From Pseudobdellovibrionaceae bacterium (GTDB taxonomy: Bacteria > Bdellovibrionota > Bdellovibrionia > Bdellovibrionales > UBA1609): a stretch of 62,694 nt of DNA. This document shows, piece by piece, positions 1-56,293 of the stretch. The stretch covers positions 1 to 62,694 of the forward strand of contig JAUVAX010000011.1 in NCBI GenBank assembly GCA_030591685.1, read 5' to 3'. The position numbers and the translations under genes were made by a program. The stretch's first letter is position 1. Every line of letters begins with the position of its first letter. Under the pieces are notes generated by a model. It was not told the DNA's origin and searched no databases. It saw only the letters and a program-made list of their open reading frames with translations.

Positions 1-1122
1 AATTTATATAATTTTAGAAACTTTTCTAAACTGAAACTACCATTATCACCGGGGCTTAATATTTTTTTAGGTGAAAATGGTCAAGGTAAAACAAACTTAC
101 TTGAATCTATTTATCTAGCCGTTAAAGGTAAGAGTTTTCGACCTAGTCAAGTATCCACATTAATCAACAAAGATATCAACAATACTTCCAAACTAGCGTT
201 GGCAAAAGTTAAGATAAAAAAAATAGAATGTTCAGAAGAAATAAAAGTACAACTCTCAGAAGAAAAAAAAACTTTTTTTTTAAATGATAAAAAAACAAGC
301 TCTAGAAAAATAATTCAAAAATTTCCAGTAATTTTATTTAGTCCAGAGAGTTTAACAGCTATTAAAGACGGCCCTGAACAAAGAAGAGATCTCATTGACG
401 AGTGGCTAGTTATTTGTGATATAAAAAATGAAAAAATACTTTCAGATTTTAAAAAAGTTCTTAAAGTTAGAAATAAAATACTTAGAGATTTTAAAAAAGG
501 GTTTTCAACCTTAATACAAACTCAAAGCTTATTAGAGGCCATAAATCAAAATTTTTTAAGCGCCTCTGTAAATTTAATGCAAGCAAGAGTGCAGTCATTA
601 AAATTAATATTAAATGATTTTAATAAAACCATGAGATTTATTACAAAAGACGAATTTGTGGATATTTCTGTGGATTACCTAGTGTCATCAGTGTCAGCTA
701 TGACATGGGGCTACGAGAAAACGAAAGATCAAATGATGCTGAGGGCCAAAGAATTACAAAGCTCTGAGCTTAATTCTGGGCTCACTTTAGTGGGTCCGCA
801 CAGGCATGATGTACAGTTTTTAATGTCTGGTGAGGATTCAAGGTATTATTGCTCGCAAGGTCAACAAAGAGCCCTGATTTTATCGTTTAAAATGGCACAA
901 ATAATCTGTCACCAAAGAGTTTATAATGACTATCCGTTATTATTGTTGGATGATGTTCTGTCCGAGCTTGATAAAACAAAAAGAAACCAATTAATTTTAT
1001 TTTTGAAGGGAATAAATGCTCAAATTTTTTTAACAACAACAGATTTGGCATTTAAGTTAAATGAGTTAAATAAAGACCTTGCGGTGTTTAATATTGAAAA
1101 AGGTCAAATAAAGTCAGTCTAG
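1..1122 (+). CDS. recF: DNA replication/repair protein RecF (5'-truncated by window edge)
   Basis: Frame open from base 1: NFRN...IFLGENGQGKTNLLESI (Walker A); later GPHRHD, SQGQQR, LLLDDVLSELD; directly upstream of gyrB. Confidence 0.97.
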   Translation, partial: NLYNFRNFSKLKLPLSPGLNIFLGENGQGKTNLLESIYLAVKGKSFRPSQVSTLINKDINNTSKLALAKVKIKKIECSEEIKVQLSEEKKTFFLNDKKTSSRKIIQKFPVILFSPESLTAIKDGPEQRRDLIDEWLVICDIKNEKILSDFKKVLKVRNKILRDFKKGFSTLIQTQSLLEAINQNFLSASVNLMQARVQSLKLILNDFNKTMRFITKDEFVDISVDYLVSSVSAMTWGYEKTKDQMMLRAKELQSSELNSGLTLVGPHRHDVQFLMSGEDSRYYCSQGQQRALILSFKMAQIICHQRVYNDYPLLLLDDVLSELDKTKRNQLILFLKGINAQIFLTTTDLAFKLNELNKDLAVFNIEKGQIKSV

Positions 1123-1140
1123 ATTTTGAAAGGGCAATGA

Positions 1141-3579
<2,439 letters not shown>

Positions 3580-3597
3580 AAGTTTTAAGGAAAAATA

Positions 3598-6042
3598 ATG
3601 GATACTACTGAAAACACAAACATACAGCCCGTTGATATTAACAAAGAAATGCGTGAGGCCTATTTACAATACTCTATGAGTGTAATTGTTGGACGAGCTT
3701 TACCTGACGTTAGAGATGGGTTAAAGCCTGTTCACCGAAGAATCTTATTTGCGATGAATGATTTAGGTAACTATCATAACAAACCTTATAAAAAATCAGC
3801 TCGTATTGTTGGGGATGTCATCGGTAAGTACCATCCGCACGGAGATACGGCGGTTTATGATACCATGGTAAGAATGGCTCAGGAGTTTTCTTTAAGACAC
3901 CCCCTCGTCGACGGGCAAGGTAACTTTGGTTCTGTCGATGGAGATTCACCGGCAGCCCAACGTTATACCGAAGTTAGAATGACAAAATTAGCAGAGGAAC
4001 TTTTAGAGGACATTGAAAAAGACACAGTACCTTTTCAACCAAACTATGATGATTCACTAATGATACCTACAGTGCTGCCGGCAAAGTTTCCGAATCTTTT
4101 AGCTAATGGTAGTTCAGGGATTGCTGTGGGTATGGCTACAAATATACCGCCACATAACTTAGGTGAGTTGATCGACGGGTGTATTAACTTAATTAATAAC
4201 CCTGAAATTACAATAGATGACCTTATGAAAGATATTAAGGGGCCGGACTTTCCAACCTCTGGTATTATTTCTGGAACTACAGGTATTCACCAGGCCTATA
4301 AAAAAGGTCGCGGCATTATTACTATTAAGGCTGTTGCAGAAATTATTTCGGTTAAAGATCGAGAGCAGATTATTGTTACAGAAATCCCATATCAGGTAAA
4401 TAAAGCTAAGCTTATTGAAAGCATGGCCTCTTTGGTAAGAGAAAAACGCGTTGAGGGTATCTCAGATATTCGAGATGAGTCCTCTAGAGAGGGCATGAGA
4501 ATTGTAATTTTTTGTAAACGAAACGAAAACGCCCAGGTCATTTTAAATCGTTTATATAAATTTACACAGATGCAAGTGAGTTATGGAATCATAATGCTCG
4601 CTATTGATTCAAAAAAACGACCAAAAACTTTTGATTTAAAGGGAATGTTAGACTCTTTCGTTGAGCATCGAAAAGATGTTGTTACTAGAAGGTGTATTTT
4701 TGAGCTTAAAAAGGCTCAAGCAAGAGCCCATATTTTAGAGGGCTTAAAAAAGGCCTTGGATCAAATAGATGCCGTTATAGAAACGATAAGAGCTTCAAAA
4801 GAGGCTGCCGTAGCAAAGTCTAATTTAATGGAAAGATTTTCCTTCACTGAGGAGCAATCGCAAGCCATATTAGAAATGCGTCTGCAAAGGTTAACAGGTC
4901 TAGAGCGACAAAAAATATTAAATGAACTTGAAGACCTGAAGGAAAAAATTAACTGGCTGACGAAGGTGTTAGCAGACGTTAATGAAGTGTATAAAATTAT
5001 CATTGAAGAATTAGTAGATATAAAAAAGAAGTTTGCTAATAAACGTAGAACAAAAATTGAAGTTAATGAATCTGAAACAGAGGTAGAAGACTTAATAGCT
5101 AATGAAGAGGTTATTGTTTTACTAACGTTCTCTGGAAATATAAAAAGAATCCCCGTTGAAGACTACAGATTACAAAAAAGGGGTGGCAAGGGCCTTAAGG
5201 GGGCCCAAACAAAAGATGAGGATTATGTGTGGAAAATTTTTGGCACAGATACTCATACAACATTACTTTCATTCTCTGATCGCGGAAAAGCATATTGGAC
5301 AAAGGTTTATAAGGTCCCTCAGGGGAGCCGCACGAGTCGCGGTAAATCAATACGAAATGTGATTAATTTATCTGGTGGTGAAAATGTAAGAGCCGTGTTG
5401 CCTATTAAAAATTTTGGTGAGCCAGGATTTGTTGTTTTACTAACAGAAAAAGGGATTATTAAAAAAACTGCGCTTGATTTATATTCGAAGCCAAGGCCAT
5501 CAGGTTTGATAGCTTTAACTACGGATCTTGAAGATAATTTAACAGCGGCTCATACAAGTACCGGAGGCTGTGATATTTTTATAGCCACTCGTCAAGGAAT
5601 GTCGATTCGGTTTAACGAAAATGATGTTCGAGGTATGGGGCGCTCGGCCCGTGGGGTAAAAGGAATTACGTTAGGCAAAGAAGACACTGTGATAGGCATG
5701 GAAGTGATACCTAAAAACTGTGAACATACGATTTTAATTGTTACAGAGGGTGGTTACGGCAAAAGAACACCGCTTAATGAGTACAGGGTACAAAGTCGAG
5801 GTGGCGTTGGAATTATTACTCAAAAGACGACTGATAAAGTGGGCAAGGTTGTTGCGGCTAAATTAGTAAGTAACGATGAGCATATAATGATAACAACAAA
5901 TGAGGGTCAGGCCATACGAATGAAGTGTTCTGATATTTCTAAGTTTGGCAGAAACACTCAAGGCGTTCGTTTGATAAACATTAAATCAGGTGAAAGAATT
6001 ACTGGTTTAGCTGTGCTAGATGCAGATGAAGATAATAATTAA
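3598..6042 (+). CDS. gyrA: DNA gyrase subunit A
   Basis: [29 protein letters not shown], GyrA-box QKRGGKG, beta-pinwheel repeats. Confidence 0.99.
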
Positions 6043-21189: not shown

Positions 21190-21957
21190 ATGTCTGAAAA
21201 CTCGAAAAATATGACAATACACTTAAAGCTTTGGAAGCAAGATGGCCCGAAGAGCAAGGGGGCGTTTGTAAGCCATACAGTTAAAGACGTTTCACCGGAT
21301 ATGTCTTTTTTAGAGTTAATAGACGTTGTGAACTCTGAATTTATAAAAAAGGACAAGCGCCCAGTCGAGTTTGATCACGACTGTAGAGAGGGGATTTGCG
21401 GAACATGCTCTATGGTGATTAATGGCGAAGCACATGGCCCTCAAAAGGCGACCACAACATGTCAGTTACATATGAGGTCTTTTTGTGATGGCGATACGAT
21501 TACTGTTGAGCCGTTTAGAGCTAAAACCTTTCGAGTTGTGCGTGACTTAGTCGTTGATAGAAGCTCGTTTGATCGAATTATACAAAAAGGCGGATTTGTT
21601 TCTGTTAATACAGGCAATGCGCAGGATGCAAACAATATCCCCATATCAAAGCCAGACTCTGATAGGTCTTTTTCAGCAGCAGCGTGCATTGGCTGTGGAG
21701 CCTGTGTGGCCGCTTGTAAAAACGCTTCGGCTTCACTTTTTGTGGCTGCAAAAATTACGCATTTATCGTTATTGCCACAAGGGCAACTGGAGCATCGGCA
21801 AAGGGCTTTAAACATGGTGGACCAAATGGACAAAGAGGGCTTTGGAGCCTGTACAAACACAGGAGCCTGTTCATTAGCCTGCCCGAAAGAAATTAGCTTA
21901 GACAGTATTGCCCTTATGAACCGTGAATATCTGAAATCATCTGTCAAAGAACGCTAA
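21190..21957 (+). CDS. sdhB: Succinate dehydrogenase/fumarate reductase Fe-S subunit
   Basis: [32 protein letters not shown]. Confidence 0.97.
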
Positions 21958-22025
21958 ATTTTAAGCACTGTAACGCTGGACCTAGATATAGGTTGTAGCG
22001 GAATTATGACTCAACAGGTAGTTAG

Positions 22026-22130
22026 TTATAAACATTAGCTCACAGGCTTATCCACACTCTCATGTAAGAAAAACTTTATTTTAACCATTGAAGCTTAGCT
22101 GTGGATCATAGTCATACAGGTTGTGCATTA
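22026..22130. promoter_or_regulatory. DnaA-box cluster
   Basis: TTATCCACA 22048-22056 (perfect); one-mismatch boxes TTATAAACA 22026, TGTGGATCA 22100, TGTGCATTA 22122; all intergenic. Confidence 0.6.
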
Positions 22131-22186
22131 ATAGTGCGCACATTTGTAGGCACCCATCTTTTTGACGATCGCATCCTGATACCAAC

Positions 22187-22214
22187 TAAAGTCTAACTCA
22201 TAAAAGCCCGAAAA
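22187..22214 (+). promoter_or_regulatory. Sigma28-like promoter
   Basis: TAAAG-N15-CCCGAAAA, same spacing as the 8643 site; 26 bp before ATG 22241. Confidence 0.5.
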
Positions 22215-22240
22215 GTTTCTACAAACCATGTGGAGAGTTA

Positions 22241-22480
22241 ATGAAGTCTATTAATGATTTAATGAAAGAGCTAGGGTGGAATGAAAAGGCTAATAAATCA
22301 GTAGCAAAGGCTTTTATAAAAAACCTCACTAAGGCGGCGAAGGAAAATTCAAAACCTCAGCCACTAAAGCCTGTTCTATCTAAAGGTCTAGCTTTTAAAA
22401 GAAAAAAAGACCTAAATCAGCAGTTGAGTTTTGACTTAGATCCCGACAAGCCCCTGTTGGATTTAAAGAAGACCTCGTAA
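22241..22480 (+). CDS. Small basic hypothetical protein with QLSF clamp-binding-like motif
   Basis: 79 aa, GGAGAG RBS, fills an intergenic gap; two N-terminal helices, Lys/Pro linker, QQLSFD near C-terminus. Confidence 0.75.
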   Translation: MKSINDLMKELGWNEKANKSVAKAFIKNLTKAAKENSKPQPLKPVLSKGLAFKRKKDLNQQLSFDLDPDKPLLDLKKTS

Positions 22481-22611
22481 TAAGGTCTAATTATAGCAAG
22501 CATAAGTCATTATATATTACTAACATCCCAATTCATTGGTACCATTTTGGAACTAGATTAAGCAAATCACCAGGACGGTGAAAAAATGTATACCGAAGGA
22601 TTGGAGAGAGA

Positions 22612-24285
22612 ATGAAAGCAGTAATAATTTCAGCAGCAGCAATACTTGGGCTCACATTATCATTAAGTGTGATGGCTAAAGAGCTTACCCCTGAGTTTGT
22701 ACCCGGTGAGTATGTGGTTCAGCTAAAGGACCCATCAATGCTCAATCAAAAAGTGATGACTCAAAACATGGGCGAAAATGGAATGAGGGTCATTAACAAA
22801 GAAAAGGGAATCCTTTTAGTAAAGAGAAATTTTTTAGAAACTCACACCTATTCGCTTTCAGCGCTGAACGAAAGTTCATACATTGAGTATGCTGAGCCAA
22901 ACTATATATATAGAGCCTCTGATTTACCAAACGATCCACTTTTAGATCAGCTTTGGGGTTTAATTAATCGAGGTCAGGCGGTTTCAAATTCTGGAACAGG
23001 CGTCAGAGGTGTTGATATAGACGCCGAACGAGCTTGGCAAATAGCTACGGGAAGTAAAAACGTAGTTGTTGCCGTCATAGACACGGGGGTTGATTATACG
23101 ATTCCAGATTTAGCTCCTAACATGTGGCAAAATCAAGCTGAACTCAATGGAGAAGAGGGTGTTGACGATGATGGCAACGGTTTTGTCGATGACATTTATG
23201 GATATGATTTTGCAAATAGCGACGCAGACCCGCGTGATGATCATGGTCACGGCTCACATTGTTCAGGAACAATAGGGGCCAATGGTAATGATGCTAATGG
23301 TGTTGTTGGTGTAAACTGGAATGTTAGCATAATGGCTCTGAAGTTTTTAACGGCTTCAGGGAGCGGGACACTTGAGGGCGCGATTAAATCAATAGACTAC
23401 GCCACAGAAAATGGCGCTCATATTATGAGTAACAGTTGGGGTGGCGGCGGATTTTCAAAAACCCTTGAGGATGCGATCATAAGAGCTAACGACAAGGGTA
23501 TTTTATTTATTGCAGCGGCGGGAAACCATAAAGCCAACAATGATGCTCGGCCCACTTACCCTGCAAACTATGAAGTGCCAAACGTAATGAGTGTGGCGGC
23601 GATTGATAATAGTGGTAAGCTAGCAAGCTTCTCTTGCTACGGAAAAGAAACGGTACATCTTGCTGCTCCTGGGGTTGAAGTGCTAAGCACAACGCCTGAT
23701 GGGTTTAAGTCATGGTCTGGTACATCTATGGCGACCCCGCATGTTTCTGGAGTTGCAGCGCTTGTTTTAGGAAACGAACCCGGTTTATCGATGCTTGAAA
23801 TTAAAGAGCGACTGATCAGAACAGCACGACCAATTGCTGGGCTAAGAAATAAAGTATTTACGGGCGGAATTGTAAACGCCTACCACGCACTAACGAACAC
23901 GCAAGCTCCCATTGATCCAAATGACCCCTTTTATTGGGCCAGGGAAGGCCGCTCAATCTCTACAGAGCATCCTTACTCTGATAGCATAAGCAGAAAATGG
24001 GAAATCACCGTAGAGGGAGCGAAAAGACTAGCCCTTCACTTTTCAAAGTTTGATACAGAGAGTGGTTATGACAAAGTAACGTTTAAAGATGTAGAGGGGA
24101 ACATACTTGGTGTAATGAGTGGGAAGAAAGACGATTCATTTTCACCGGTCGTAATTGGCAATACAATGATTATAGAGTTCGCTACAGATAAAACAACGAC
24201 GCGATATGGTTTTGATATTGATCAAATTGCTGTAGATGCCGAAGGCAATGAGTCGGAATTAAAAGTAAAAATAATAGAACTTTAG
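22612..24285 (+). CDS. Secreted S8 (subtilisin) serine protease with C-terminal CUB-like domain
   Basis: Signal peptide, propeptide (YAEPNY), triad VIDTG / HGSHC / GTSMATPH, CUB-like LHFSKFDTESGYDKV. Confidence 0.95.
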   Translation: MKAVIISAAAILGLTLSLSVMAKELTPEFVPGEYVVQLKDPSMLNQKVMTQNMGENGMRVINKEKGILLVKRNFLETHTYSLSALNESSYIEYAEPNYIYRASDLPNDPLLDQLWGLINRGQAVSNSGTGVRGVDIDAERAWQIATGSKNVVVAVIDTGVDYTIPDLAPNMWQNQAELNGEEGVDDDGNGFVDDIYGYDFANSDADPRDDHGHGSHCSGTIGANGNDANGVVGVNWNVSIMALKFLTASGSGTLEGAIKSIDYATENGAHIMSNSWGGGGFSKTLEDAIIRANDKGILFIAAAGNHKANNDARPTYPANYEVPNVMSVAAIDNSGKLASFSCYGKETVHLAAPGVEVLSTTPDGFKSWSGTSMATPHVSGVAALVLGNEPGLSMLEIKERLIRTARPIAGLRNKVFTGGIVNAYHALTNTQAPIDPNDPFYWAREGRSISTEHPYSDSISRKWEITVEGAKRLALHFSKFDTESGYDKVTFKDVEGNILGVMSGKKDDSFSPVVIGNTMIIEFATDKTTTRYGFDIDQIAVDAEGNESELKVKIIEL

Positions 24286-24338: not shown

Positions 24339-25220
24339 TTAGTCAGAGGCTTGAACCTCTTTGAAAAATTTCTCAAGGCGAAGGTTTACATACTCGGGCA
24401 AATCAAGCTGCGTGCAGTGTGAACCATAGGGCATAAAGCTTATCTGTGAGTGGGGTAGTTTATGGTGAATATCCTCTTGGTGCTGCCTTGGAGTGATACC
24501 ATCTTTTTGTCCACTAATAATTAAACAAGGCACTTCGATAGCCTCTAGTAAGGGCTCTCCATTAAAGTTCATCATGTCATCAAAGAGGCGCAAGAAGGCC
24601 TTTAGATCCATTTCAGAGATAGATTTTAAGTAAATTTCAATGTCCTTATAAGAAGTAAGAGAGAGGTTAAACCCCCCAGCTAAAGCACTGAGTGTTCCCG
24701 ACAGGGGGTTGTTAATAATCATTTTCCATAAATGCGACGTCGTTTCAGGAAGAAGATCAAAGCTTCTCTTAAGTGTAGTAAAGGCTTTTTCAGGCAAACG
24801 GCTGCCAAACATGTCTTGCAAAGGGTTTTTAACAAAGCCGTTAATAAAAGTTATGGATTTGAAATCATTTGGATTAAGTTGATAGGCTTGAGTAAGGACC
24901 TGCGCACCGTAGCTGTGCGCAATAAAATGAGCCTTTTCAATATTGAGGTGTTTTAAAAGCTCATGTAGGTCCCTTGCAATGGAGCGGATATTTAAATTTC
25001 TGTAATTAACGGGAACATCAGATTGATTGTGGGCGCGGTAATCAACGAGTATAACCTGATATTTTTTTGAAAAAAACTTTGTTTGATAGGTCCAGTGATT
25101 AAATAAACACCCAATCCCATAGACAAAGATAAGTGGTTCGCCATGTCCTCGAACCTCATAATATATACGGGTGTCATCAAAACTTTTAAAGGCACCCGTT
25201 TTTTTTATAATTCTATTCAT
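24339..25220 (-). CDS. Alpha/beta fold hydrolase
   Basis: DYRAH, nucleophile AHSYG, SGQKD, GSH. Confidence 0.9.
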   Translation of the reverse strand: MNRIIKKTGAFKSFDDTRIYYEVRGHGEPLIFVYGIGCLFNHWTYQTKFFSKKYQVILVDYRAHNQSDVPVNYRNLNIRSIARDLHELLKHLNIEKAHFIAHSYGAQVLTQAYQLNPNDFKSITFINGFVKNPLQDMFGSRLPEKAFTTLKRSFDLLPETTSHLWKMIINNPLSGTLSALAGGFNLSLTSYKDIEIYLKSISEMDLKAFLRLFDDMMNFNGEPLLEAIEVPCLIISGQKDGITPRQHQEDIHHKLPHSQISFMPYGSHCTQLDLPEYVNLRLEKFFKEVQASD

Positions 25221-26146
25221 GACTGTATTTGAACCTCAATCTCTGTTTCACCAATTCTTATAATATCCCCTGTGTTTAATATTTCGGAGGACAGGGGCTT
25301 TTCATTTAGAAAAACTTTTTCAGGGTGGTCGGTTTGAATTTGTGCCCCATTTTTTGTTGGCGCGATTGAAAAGCTCTTTTTGGGGGCATCAGGTTCAAAA
25401 AGGCTCAATTGCAGGACTTCTGAGCCAGCGACCCTTGGACCATAGCCAAGAGTCCAGTGGGTTCCTGTTTGTACCCCGCGAAAAAAAATGAGTTCAATGA
25501 CATCATCAAAAGCAAAAACGGGGCGGGGTGAGGTTTTTGGAAAAAACGTATTTTGAATGAGTTCTGCGAGCGCCTCAGGCCACTTTAGGGGGGTAAGGTT
25601 AATGGCCGTCTCATATTTGGGTTCAAAGTTGATGCGCTTAAGATCAGGGTTTGTTTCGTCTAATGCAGGGGCATTTACAATAGCGGAGGATGTCTTCTCG
25701 CTTGAGTCCGAGTAGGGATTTTTGGTTACAGAAGTCTCAAAGTCCTCATTAAAGGGAGGAGTGGGGGGAAGTGTCCCCGTATGGAAGGTCTCTTCATTTT
25801 TATGGGCGGGCGGGTCGCCTACGGGTGGGGGCGTCGGCGAGAGGCTACTTTTGGGCTTTTGAGCTAAGACTTCAAAATGTGTACTGCCAATTTGAAAGCG
25901 CACCCCTGGAGAGAGGGCGATTTTGTCGATTTTTTTACCAAAAACCTTAGTTCCGTTTCTAGAGTCATTATCTTCAAGTACCCACTTTCCAGACGGTAGT
26001 TTTGAAACTTTAGCATGAACACTGGAGACGTTGGGGTCTTTAAGGTTAATAAGGGCCTTTCTTCGCCCGAAGCTAAGCTTGTCGACAAGGCGTATAATTT
26101 GGCCCTTAAGGGGCCCCTCAGAGACTTTTATAACCCATTTACTCAT
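25217..26146 (-). CDS. FHA-domain protein (FHA, Pro-rich linker, degenerate second FHA-like domain)
   Basis: FGR, VSSVHA, LED.DSRNGT; C-terminal LN...L.TGDIIRIGET. Confidence 0.85.
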   Translation of the reverse strand: MSKWVIKVSEGPLKGQIIRLVDKLSFGRRKALINLKDPNVSSVHAKVSKLPSGKWVLEDNDSRNGTKVFGKKIDKIALSPGVRFQIGSTHFEVLAQKPKSSLSPTPPPVGDPPAHKNEETFHTGTLPPTPPFNEDFETSVTKNPYSDSSEKTSSAIVNAPALDETNPDLKRINFEPKYETAINLTPLKWPEALAELIQNTFFPKTSPRPVFAFDDVIELIFFRGVQTGTHWTLGYGPRVAGSEVLQLSLFEPDAPKKSFSIAPTKNGAQIQTDHPEKVFLNEKPLSSEILNTGDIIRIGETEIEVQIQS

Positions 26147-53287: not shown

Positions 53288-54973
53288 ATGTCAGAGTCGA
53301 CAGACATCAAGAAAGAGACTGAGCCCGAAAAAAAGAAGCCCAGGGCGACCAAGGCCACCCCTAGCGAGGAATCAAAATCAGCCTCTACAAAGGCGGCCCC
53401 AGCAGAAGAAAAAAAACAAGCCACAACAAAATCTACGCCAGCAGAGTCACGACCTGAAGAAAGGCCCAGAGAGCCTTCGTCGGGTCAAAAAACCCGTAAG
53501 CGAAGCGGGGGGCGATCAAGTTCAGACTATAGATCTAGAAAGCAGTCTCAAAACAGCAACAGCAACAACAACAACAATAATAATAATAACCAAAACAGAG
53601 GCAACAAGTCCCATCACAACAGAAACAACCAGCAGTCCTCGTACTCTCACCAAGATGATATTGTGGTGGAGCCAGAGGTGGACCTTTCTGACGTCACCTT
53701 GTCTGAAGAGGAAAAGGGCGACCTGAACTCAAAGAGTTTAAAATCAAAAGACATCAAGCATTTGGTGGATTTGGCCACAAAACTAAAAATTGAAAACGCC
53801 GCCGGCTTAAGGCGACAAGACTTAGTGTTTAACATTTTAAAAAGAGCCTCCAAACTAGGTGAAGATGTTTATGGCGATGGTGTGCTAGAAATTTTACCCG
53901 ATGGGTACGGGTTTCTAAGGTCACCAGATTACAACTATTTACCGGGCCCCGATGATATTTATGTAAGCCCATCGCAAATAAGAAGGTTTGGCTTGAGAAC
54001 AGGGGACACGATCACCGGCACTGTTCGCCCCCCCAAGGATCAAGAGAGGTATTTTGCCCTCTTAAAGGTGGACACATTAAATTATGAGCCCACAGAAAAG
54101 GGTAAAGATAAAATTTTATTTGATAACTTAACACCCCTGTACCCTGAGGAGCGCTTTAAGCTAGAGCATGACCCAAAGGTATTGACCTCTCGTGTGGTGG
54201 ACCTAATGAGCCCACTTGGTAAAGGGCAAAGAGCCTTAATTGTGGCGCCACCAAGAACGGGTAAAACAGTTTTATTACAGAACATAGCAGAGTCTATTTC
54301 AATTAATTACCCGGACGTGACCTTAATCGTTTTACTCATTGATGAGCGCCCCGAAGAAGTTACAGACATGTTAAGGCATGTTAAGGGCGAGGTGATAAGC
54401 TCTACTTTTGATGAGCCCCCCACGCGACATGTTCAGGTGGCTGAAATGGTGATCTCAAAAGCAAAGCGGTTGGTGGAGCATAAACATGATGTTGTGATTT
54501 TATTAGACTCGATCACCCGTTTAGCGAGAGCTTATAATACAGTTGTGCCCCCTTCGGGCAAAATACTCTCTGGTGGTGTTGATTCGAACGCCCTTCATAA
54601 GCCAAAAAGGTTTTTTGGGGCCGCTAGGAACGTTGAAGAGGGCGGTAGCTTAACGATCATTGCCACAGCACTTGTAGACACGGGATCTCGTATGGACGAG
54701 GTCATTTTTGAGGAGTTTAAAGGCACCGGTAATAGCGAGATACATCTTGATCGAAAACTTATGGAAAAGCGCATATTCCCGTGTATGGACATAAATAGAT
54801 CCGGCACAAGAAAGGAAGACCTGCTTTTAGACGCCGGCGATTTGCAAAGAATTTGGATTCTTAGAAAGGTGTTAGCTCCAATGAACGTTGTGGATAGTAT
54901 GGAGTTTATTGCGGACAAATTAAAGCGTACAAAAACAAATGCTGAATTTTTATCGAGCATGGGGGCAAAGTAA
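53288..54973 (+). CDS. rho: Transcription termination factor Rho with N-terminal low-complexity extension
   Basis: [60 protein letters not shown]. Confidence 0.99.
53552..53596 (+). repeat. AAC/AAT triplet tract (poly-Asn) in rho
   Basis: Run of aac/agc/aat triplets encoding the NSNS-polyN-QN stretch. Confidence 0.85.
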
Positions 54974-55055: not shown

Positions 55056-55076
55056 TGTGGATAACCTTGTGGAAAA
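55056..55076 (-). promoter_or_regulatory. Tandem pair of consensus DnaA boxes
   Basis: TGTGGATAA (55056-55064) and TGTGGAAAA (55068-55076) both match TTWTNCACA, 3 bp apart, intergenic. Confidence 0.65.
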
Positions 55077-55216: not shown

Positions 55217-56293
55217 ATGTTTAAAAAATTAGAAGAAGTTGAGCGGCGATACGAACAGGTTCAACAGCAGCTTCAAAGGCCAGGGGTGGCAGATAATAAA
55301 AAAGAGTTTCGCTCCATGATGAAGGAGCTCTCTGACCTTGAAAAACTTGTTGTTGTCTACCGAGGTTATAAAAAAACAATCAAAGAAATTAAATCTAACA
55401 AAGAGCTGCTGGAGTCAGAAAAAGACGAAGAAATACGTCAAATGGCAAAGGATGAGCTGGGCGAATTAGAACAAGTTAAAAAAGAGGAAGAGCAAAACTT
55501 AAAAGTTATGCTTTTGCCCACAGACCCTAACGATGACAAAAACATTATTTTAGAAATCCGAGCGGGCGCCGGTGGTGACGAGGCGGGTTTGTTTTCTGAA
55601 GAGCTGTTTAGGGCCTACTCTGTGTTTGCAAACTCAAAGGGTTGGAAGACACAGTTGATTTCAACGTCTTCTGGTAACGTCGGGGGCTTTAAAGAGGTGA
55701 TTGCTTTAATTTCTGGGGATCAGGTTTACAGTACACTTAAATATGAAAGCGGAGTTCACCGTGTGCAAAGGGTGCCAAAGACAGAGTCTCAGGGCAGAGT
55801 GCACACCTCAACGGTAACAGTCGCTGTAATACCTGAGGCCGAAGAGGTGGCCGTTAAGGTAAACCCAAACGACCTTCGCGTTGATGTGTACCGATCAAGC
55901 GGGCACGGGGGACAGTCTGTAAATACGACAGACTCTGCGGTGCGAGTCACGCACCTGCCGACAGGCATAGTTGTCACCTGCCAAGATGGCAAATCACAGC
56001 TTTCAAATAAAGAGCAGGCGTTAAAGGTTTTATACTCAAGGTTAGTGGCCATGGAGGAAGATAAAAAACGCCAAGAGGCCTCTAGCGCCCGGTTATCACA
56101 AATAGGCACGGGTGATCGGTCAGAGAGGGTCAGGACCTATAACTTCCCCCAATCAAGGTTAACAGACCACCGAATTGGCTTAACGACTCATAACCTTACA
56201 GCCGTTATGTCGGGTGAATTTTCTGAAATAATTGATGCGTTAATTGCACACTATCAGGTTGAGGCCTTAAAGAGGCAGAGCAATGACTCTTAA
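55217..56293 (+). CDS. prfA: Peptide chain release factor 1
   Basis: [23 protein letters not shown] (PxT), GGQ, RTYNFPQ.R.TDHR. Confidence 0.99.

Follow-up and report, generated by a model that had tools for sequence, protein, structure and literature searches.

The stretch of DNA analysed here (the window, 62,694 nt) comes from a 2.66-Mb genome assembly (G000) of a Pseudobdellovibrionaceae bacterium. At 22241-22480 on its + strand it holds a coding sequence for a protein of 79 amino acids (aa) that belongs to the same family as Bd0027 of Bdellovibrio bacteriovorus HD100, with 42% identity over 73 aa (E = 9e-13). An intergenic gap (21958-22240) separates this small gene from sdhB (21190-21957); on its other side follow a subtilase with a CUB domain (22612-24285) and then, on the opposite strand, an alpha/beta hydrolase. 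The gap contains NrdR-box-like palindromes, DnaA boxes, a FliA (sigma28)-type promoter, TAAAG-N16-CCGAAA (22187-22213, + strand; TAAAG at 22187-22191, a spacer of 16 nt, CCGAAA at 22208-22213), and, by direct reading of the sequence, a ribosome-binding site, GGAGAG (22232-22237, + strand), in front of the ATG at 22241. A sequence-only reading of the stretch had placed DnaA boxes, promoter, ribosome-binding site, the 79-aa open reading frame (ORF) and a QLSF peptide (22421-22432, residues 61-64) here, and each of these elements was found where it had been put. Our analysis points to an order-wide small protein whose QLSF[DN][LF] tail is predicted to bind the pocket of the beta clamp, DnaN, and we give an even chance to the reading that this protein likely keeps the idle clamp occupied in attack-phase cells.

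The ORF at 22241-22480 is confirmed as a real gene, as the sequence-only reading had supposed of its small protein. A six-frame search of 41 related genomes gave matches at E<=1e-3 in 14 of them, and 15 relatives were aligned, none of them from the window's own genome and each sharing 29-46% identity with the window protein. The profile built from these relatives recovered 430 matches at E<=1e-3 (262 at E<=1e-10) among 1.84 billion representative proteins. The best 150 of these 430 are all 61-137 aa long, and the family logo as well as the motif and linker counts given below were taken from them. A word-index search for proteins of similar length returned the query alone; the divergent family was found by profile search. 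Named records were recovered for five members; four bear the label "hypothetical protein" and come from genomes of Bdellovibrionales, Bdellovibrionaceae, Pseudobdellovibrionaceae or Bdellovibrionota. When 201 genomes of the phylum were sampled, the family was found in 29 of the 36 others belonging to the window's order and in none of the 164 that represent 22 other families. Two copies occur in one genome of this order, one at the usual origin-proximal place (G063:C1:25599-25814) and one at 1172861-1173070. For comparisons between loci a set of 69 related loci was collected with a narrower alignment and the pattern [QK][KE]AFIK[NH]L[IV], and this set is biased toward Bdellovibrio/Pseudobdellovibrio-type members.

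Searches for a relative of known function gave little. Pfam at E<=10 yielded LssY_C as the sole match, below threshold at 15 bits against a cut-off of 25 bits, and no NCBIfam family was matched by the 79-aa protein. A profile search of PDB sequences at E<=10 and a Foldseek search of the PDB both returned zero matches, and a wide VIA-align run reached a best Z of 2.5 with every row tied and no known relative. The sole ESM Atlas match was a "hypothetical protein" cluster of Bdellovibrionota (score 0.76). Our literature search, which did not extend to the supplements of bioRxiv preprints, found no paper on the function of Bd0027, and for Bdellovibrio together with clamp-binding it found only a review of translesion synthesis. 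A FlgM-like anti-sigma factor was considered and dropped, as no Pfam match of the protein supports FlgM.

Members of the family share a three-part build: a head of two helices, a disordered linker that varies, and a tail peptide that is invariant. In an AlphaFold2 model built on the 15-sequence alignment, the head of the window protein (residues 1-37, 22241-22351, + strand) forms helices at residues 4-10 and 19-37, with predicted local distance difference test (pLDDT) values of 86, 89, 92 and 82 by block. The head is the best conserved part, with the consensus MK.(I/V)G(D/E)(L/I)M.ELGFN..A....KAFIK(H/N)LI..A, and M1, G12, A24, F25 and L29 do not vary among the 15 sequences. It is followed by a Lys/Pro-rich linker (residues 38-59, 22352-22417, + strand; isoelectric point (pI) 10.7), which is predicted to be disordered; across the family it is 7 to 66 residues long (median 28). 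The whole window protein has a pI of 9.95, and the family ranges from 4.6 to 10.1, i.e. basicity is not conserved. The protein ends in a basic KKTS (22466-22477, + strand), which fits the family end [KR][KR][VAS][SGA] (out of 150: K/R at -4 in 91, K/R at -3 in 90, V/A/S at -2 in 103 and S/G/A at -1 in 115). This conserved end could be a degradation tag, or a contact to DNA or to the clamp.

Behind the linker, all of the 150 best representatives carry the tail motif, with the logo [PEG][EQ]-Q-L-S-F-[DNF]-[FL]-[ED]. In the window protein it reads QLSFDL (residues 61-66, 22421-22438, + strand), and its conservation in the family and its fit to published forms make it a predicted beta-clamp-binding motif. 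Motif position 1 is Q throughout, in all 150 representatives as in all 15 relatives (Q61 in the window); position 2 is mostly L (133, besides M 13, F 2, I 1 and V 1; L62 in the window); at position 4 F prevails (132, besides 18 with L). An F at position 5 occurs in 18 of 150, and position 6 has F 78 times and L 40 times. Most frequent are QLSFD (42), QLSFN (20), QLEFD (11) and QLSLF (11). Among the 15 relatives we count QQLSFDL three times and KQLSFDL, QLEFDF, QMSFNL, QLSFKF, QLEFKL and QLSFNL once each, while the remaining six have the canonical pentapeptide (QISLF and QLSLF once each, QLDLF and QLNLF twice each). At locus L018 the tail is EQLSFNL.

Excerpts of a recent preprint (bioRxiv 10.64898/2026.05.27.728225) distinguish two forms of the clamp motif, the pentapeptide Q-phi-x-L-F (consensus QL[S/D]LF) and the hexapeptide Q-phi-x-L-x-L, and list among the motifs of clamp clients QLSFF, QLNLF, QLELF, QVELEF and QLSLPL. 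The same excerpts give a precedent for F at position 4, namely QLSFF of Bacillus subtilis MutS, which lies outside the consensus. The sequence-only reading had made its proposal depend on QLxF being conserved in homologues; the peptide turned out to be invariant, alternating with canonical QLSLF, QLDLF and QLNLF. It is this invariance, together with the switching between two known clamp forms while the surrounding tail drifts, that supports the motif. The motif also lies in a segment predicted to be exposed and flexible: the DnaN clients Pol III alpha, Pol IV/Y-family polymerases, MutS and Hda carry Q-phi-x-[L/F]-[F or x-L/F] in a flexible segment, and in the window protein no secondary structure is predicted after residue 37 (pLDDT 57-68). 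Within the same genome the Y-family polymerase has QQQLSLFD and DnaE has QFSLF. Judged from the peptide sequence, we consider that the tail probably binds DnaN.

Two further proteins of this genome carry clamp-type peptides. An FHA-domain protein of 309 aa in the window (25220-26146, - strand) has LQLSLFE at residue 245, which is a canonical clamp pentapeptide. A YgjP-like metallopeptidase (G000:C50:5212-6066, L123) starts with MFEQLNLF and thus has a clamp pentapeptide at its extreme N-terminus, as in the case of the motif of Hda.

The promoter connects the small gene with the attack phase. In B. bacteriovorus, the consensus TTAAG-N16-CCGATA is present in 92 of 140 mapped attack-phase promoters (PMC3627812, in excerpt), and the window promoter fits its -35 (T[TA]AAG), its 16-nt spacer and its -10 (CCGA[TA]A). 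Two flagellin genes of the window's genome carry CTAAAG/CTAAAT ... CCGAAGAG. The start-site table excerpted from the same study lists Bd0027 with its start at 25425, the gene at 25438-25689, 35 supporting reads, an operon 27 + 28 and a FliA site (PMC3627812). Locus L125 contains the printed 51-nt Bd0027 promoter without a single difference; the match ends at the mapped start, 25425, and downstream of it L125 has the family member of 83 aa (25438-25689) that ends in ...PQQLSFDFVEDATPRPKTSKKAVS. The design of this promoter is TAAAG-N16-CCGAAA, the same as in the window, and by analogy with the mapped start we predict that transcription of the window gene begins near 22221. Across the family, T[TAC]AAG-N16-CCGA stands 20-40 nt before the start codon at 35 of 77 loci (5 of 17 in the window clade, 30 of 60 of Bdellovibrio type), against a background of 8 matches in 739,870 nt.

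Expression of Bd0027 follows the promoter type. In the published HD100 expression table it reaches 1224 reads per kilobase per million (RPKM) in attack phase versus 112 in growth phase, a 10.6-fold difference, and it does so within a run of growth-specific genes (RPKM in attack versus growth phase: dnaA 4/224, dnaN 14/2010, sdhB 3/491). An independent microarray gives 0.63- and 0.62-fold on bdelloplast entry (p = 2.9e-4; PMC2797640 supplement). What the sequence-only reading had proposed for the window gene, a sigma28 promoter with attack-phase expression, has thus been demonstrated by published experiment for its B. bacteriovorus counterpart.

The clamp itself is a plausible partner in these cells. 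In G1 (attack-phase) cells of B. bacteriovorus, DnaN-msfGFP made from its native locus gives a diffuse signal, and in wild type the first DnaN focus appears 95 +/- 14 min after prey entry. According to supplements of a time-resolved proteome (PMC12546842), the DnaN protein changes by a log2 of only 0.48 from attack phase to its 3-h peak. The clamp protein is thus retained through the non-replicating phase, at an mRNA level about 140-fold lower.

The small gene lies in an origin-proximal part of the chromosome. The window begins with recF (5'-open), gyrB and gyrA (1-6042), followed by atpB, etfBA and sdhCAB; dnaA and dnaN of the same genome form the end of another contig (G000:C63:129272-132029). 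From the start of the one contig and the end of the other we place the window next to the origin, with the small gene about 24 kb from dnaA, and the gene order matches the published table for B. bacteriovorus HD100. An Rfam scan of 21800-22700 gave one match at chance level (E = 0.38), and a terminator scan found no + strand terminator 3' of the small gene.

Upstream of the gene there is a perfect DnaA box, TTATCCACA, at 22048-22056 (+ strand). It is accompanied by a low-match box, TTATAAACA (22026-22034, + strand; 2 mismatches to TTATCCACA), a putative degenerate box-like site, TAGCTCACA (22036-22044, + strand; 5/9 match), and an inverted box, TGATCCACA, with 1 mismatch (22100-22108, - strand). 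L003 also has a box at this offset (+52), though there it is directly oriented. The genome as a whole has 34 perfect boxes versus 31 expected. Clusters of a perfect box and a box with at most one mismatch within 120 bp number seven in the genome; two of these flank dnaA (C63, 129136-129198 and 130699-130791) and one is the small-gene site. Another cluster of this kind lies between rho (53288-54973) and prfA (55217-56293), at 55056-55076 (- strand), and its perfect and 1-mismatch boxes are separated by 12 bp.

In the window clade the boxes accompany the gene. Within 400 nt upstream, 13 of 17 loci have a perfect box, which stands on the + strand and reads toward the gene in 12 of these 13; in total, 15 perfect boxes fall in 6.8 kb upstream versus 1 in the remaining 74.6 kb of these loci. 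The arrangement is also shared in part. A TTATAWACA variant about 22 bp upstream of the perfect box recurs at L002, L003, L005, L011 and L018, and a CCACAG/CACAG core lies between two stronger boxes at L002, L003, L005, L008, L018 and L081. The full composite of TTATAWACA, degenerate CCACAG core and TTATCCACA, i.e. three direct sites about 11 bp apart, is found at L001, L002, L003, L005, L011 and L018, and four loci of other genera (L010, L016, L017, L096) have two to four direct boxes with a 21-bp phase.

Such an array need not be an operator. It might instead be an origin-proximal titration or architectural cluster, comparable to datA or to the DnaA-box clusters of B. subtilis, as would fit its location about 24 kb from dnaA, the variable distance of the boxes from the start codon (150-330 nt), their phasing as direct repeats at 11 or 21-22 bp and the adjoining sigma70-type promoters, which do not exceed chance (2 found versus 2.2 expected). 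Against this speak the constant orientation toward the gene and the fact that array and small gene remain together even where a gene other than sdhB lies upstream, namely a divergent Crp-like gene at L003 and a divergent etfB at L016. On balance we regard a titration cluster as somewhat unlikely.

The same gap holds two 16-bp sites resembling NrdR boxes. The first, gACCTAGATATAGGTt (21979-21994), has all six conserved positions, with C4 at 21982 and G13 at 21991; the second and weaker one (22009-22024) has five of six, T9 being G. NrdR boxes are described as having highly conserved C4, A6, A8, T9, T11 and G13 and as occurring as two 16-bp boxes with a 15-16 bp linker (PMC13584703, in excerpt). 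The spacing in the window fits this weakly, with a linker of 14 bp versus the usual 15-16 and a C4-to-C4 distance of 30 bp versus the expected 31-32. Relatives have the palindrome as CCACTACATATAGTGT, CCACTAGATGTAGTGG or CCACTACATCTAGTGG, and it occurs upstream at 9 of 17 window-clade loci (16 matches in 6.8 kb versus 1 in 74.6 kb elsewhere). The genome encodes nrdR and has one similar half-palindrome upstream of its class I ribonucleotide reductase (RNR) gene. A loose regular expression for the 10-mer NrdR core was not enriched genome-wide (276 found versus 309 expected), and a first palindrome expression gave few matches upstream of RNR genes in five relatives. The assignment of these palindromes to NrdR is a lead.

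In loci of the B. bacteriovorus type, the gap between sdhB and the small gene contains a long inverted repeat (L037:2212-2380; L125:50-190). Its arms of about 25-30 nt, aaaggtgcctggt... / ...accaggcaccttt, enclose about 100 nt, and the window has no counterpart.

Comparison with known systems helps to delimit what the family could be. Bd0027 resembles the window protein in family, build, QQLSFD tail and promoter design, and also in its neighbours (sdhA, sdhB, the small gene, subtilase, alpha/beta hydrolase); it differs in that B. bacteriovorus-type loci have neither DnaA boxes nor NrdR-like palindromes upstream. Known DnaN clients are enzymes or AAA+ proteins, whereas the family protein lacks a catalytic domain and has just a head of 37 residues. 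SocB of Caulobacter is a small clamp-binding toxin thought to block replication by filling the clamp pocket; it forms a pair with an antitoxin, and ClpXP clears it. Of the systems compared it comes closest to the action proposed here, and the window protein differs from it by a FliA-type promoter and by having no antitoxin neighbour. Sda of B. subtilis, small, helical and controlled through DnaA boxes, targets a kinase and links development to the state of replication. YabA of the same species is also small and helical and binds both DnaA and DnaN, and it has a zinc domain and no QLxLF tail. The window protein had no Pfam match to the Sda or YabA family at E<=10. Hda/HdaA uses a clamp motif, QLSLPL (bioRxiv 10.64898/2026.05.27.728225, in excerpt). 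As an AAA+ protein with a length of about 230 aa, Hda differs from the window protein, which has 79 aa and no Pfam or NCBIfam AAA+ match. Proteins that act through a clamp-binding peptide are known; the build of this family, its sigma28 timing and the family itself are new.

We propose the following scenario. The tail peptide would dock in the hydrophobic pocket of DnaN and would there compete with polymerases and the clamp loader, keeping them off the idle clamp in the non-replicating hunter. After prey entry the FliA regulon would be switched off, the protein would be lost and the clamp freed, which may help to time replisome assembly. In the window clade the phased DnaA boxes and the NrdR-like palindromes might add input from replication and deoxynucleoside triphosphate (dNTP) status, of either sign. 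A role as a replication brake is a tentative suggestion on our part. The wider idea, that the family is the missing G1 brake, a FliA-driven clamp plug whose decay after prey entry sets the delay of the first replisome, with the window lineage also wired to DnaA and NrdR in a feedback loop of initiation, dNTP supply and clamp, is conceivable, and we lean toward doubting it.

Several observations weigh against occupation of the idle clamp by this protein. Docking on DnaN is a prediction from the peptide, motif position 4 is F in the dominant family form but L in most characterised motifs, and clamp-like peptides as such occur in the genome at roughly the chance rate by a rough estimate, so that a peptide alone would be no sign of clamp binding. 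A regular expression for the clamp motif matched five of all ORFs of at least 60 aa in the genome, namely the Y-family polymerase, the 79-aa ORF described here, the YgjP-like peptidase, the FHA protein and one protein without identified function; because this is about chance level, the case for the motif rests on conservation and not on occurrence. As to timing, phase-specific expression of the window gene is deduced from that of Bd0027, and Bd0027 itself is classed as 'Both' and, given its growth-phase transcript level, is not confined to the non-replicating state. Bd0027 also has zero occurrences in the supplementary tables searched from the time-resolved B. bacteriovorus proteome (PMC12546842); a Lys-rich protein of 83 aa is easily overlooked in proteome tables. 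The DnaA boxes, finally, are some 120-175 nt upstream of the predicted sigma28 start, a long distance for a simple operator, and the 62 Bdellovibrio/Pseudobdellovibrio-type loci have only 5 perfect boxes in 24.8 kb (400 nt each) upstream, with none in B. bacteriovorus loci. The array is not family-wide, and 'DnaA-responsive', as the sequence-only reading had called the protein, therefore holds at most for part of the family: the boxes are a conserved feature of the window clade and do not extend beyond it to the family as a whole.

Some of these points are shared by another scenario, in which the protein is a clamp adaptor and not a plug: the tail would bind DnaN, the head would bind a second partner (DnaA or DNA) and give Hda/YabA-like feedback on initiation during growth, and the attack-phase burst would pre-load the next cycle. 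The head is indeed conserved beyond the needs of a spacer (G12, F/W13, A24, F25 and L29 are invariant or nearly so), and the genome has no Hda-like paralogue, the Hda model matching only DnaA and that below its cut-off. In Caulobacter, hdaA is DnaA-controlled. Continued growth-phase expression of Bd0027 and the DnaA boxes upstream in the window clade would likewise suit an adaptor. Yet expression peaks when the dnaA mRNA is nearly silent, and the head has no detectable relative of known function in Pfam, NCBIfam, Foldseek, the PDB or VIA-align, so we judge an adaptor to be unlikely.

It is comparably improbable that the tail is a linear motif for some other partner and the protein a clamp-unrelated attack-phase factor such as a small basic protein of the FliA regulon with a nucleoid or stress function: about two thirds of B. 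bacteriovorus attack-phase promoters are FliA-type and drive many unrelated genes (PMC3627812, in excerpt), clamp-like peptides arise by chance in a proteome and the window protein is basic, but across orthologues the peptide alternates between exactly two known clamp forms while its surroundings drift, the gene keeps its position near dnaA, DnaA boxes precede it in the window clade and its basicity is not a family trait.

Occupation of the idle clamp by a small FliA-driven protein would bear on a gap in the biology of these predators. The excerpted text of a 2023 review (PMC11318664) states that no replication-initiation regulator is so far known from B. bacteriovorus and that there is no report of a mechanism that prevents or triggers (re)initiation. 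The family described here would be the first candidate regulator of the time of DNA copying in Bdellovibrio-type predators. As a single small gene with one critical peptide, bd0027 is tractable, and native-locus DnaN-msfGFP strains exist. If the peptide binds DnaN, the family would represent a developmentally timed clamp ligand with no enzyme attached, and thereby a new coupling of the motility sigma factor to the replication machinery. Hexapeptides with F at position 4 would then join the repertoire of clamp motifs, and the window clade, with its DnaA and NrdR-like sites, would offer a rare instance of a non-RNR gene that has both replication-linked regulators upstream.

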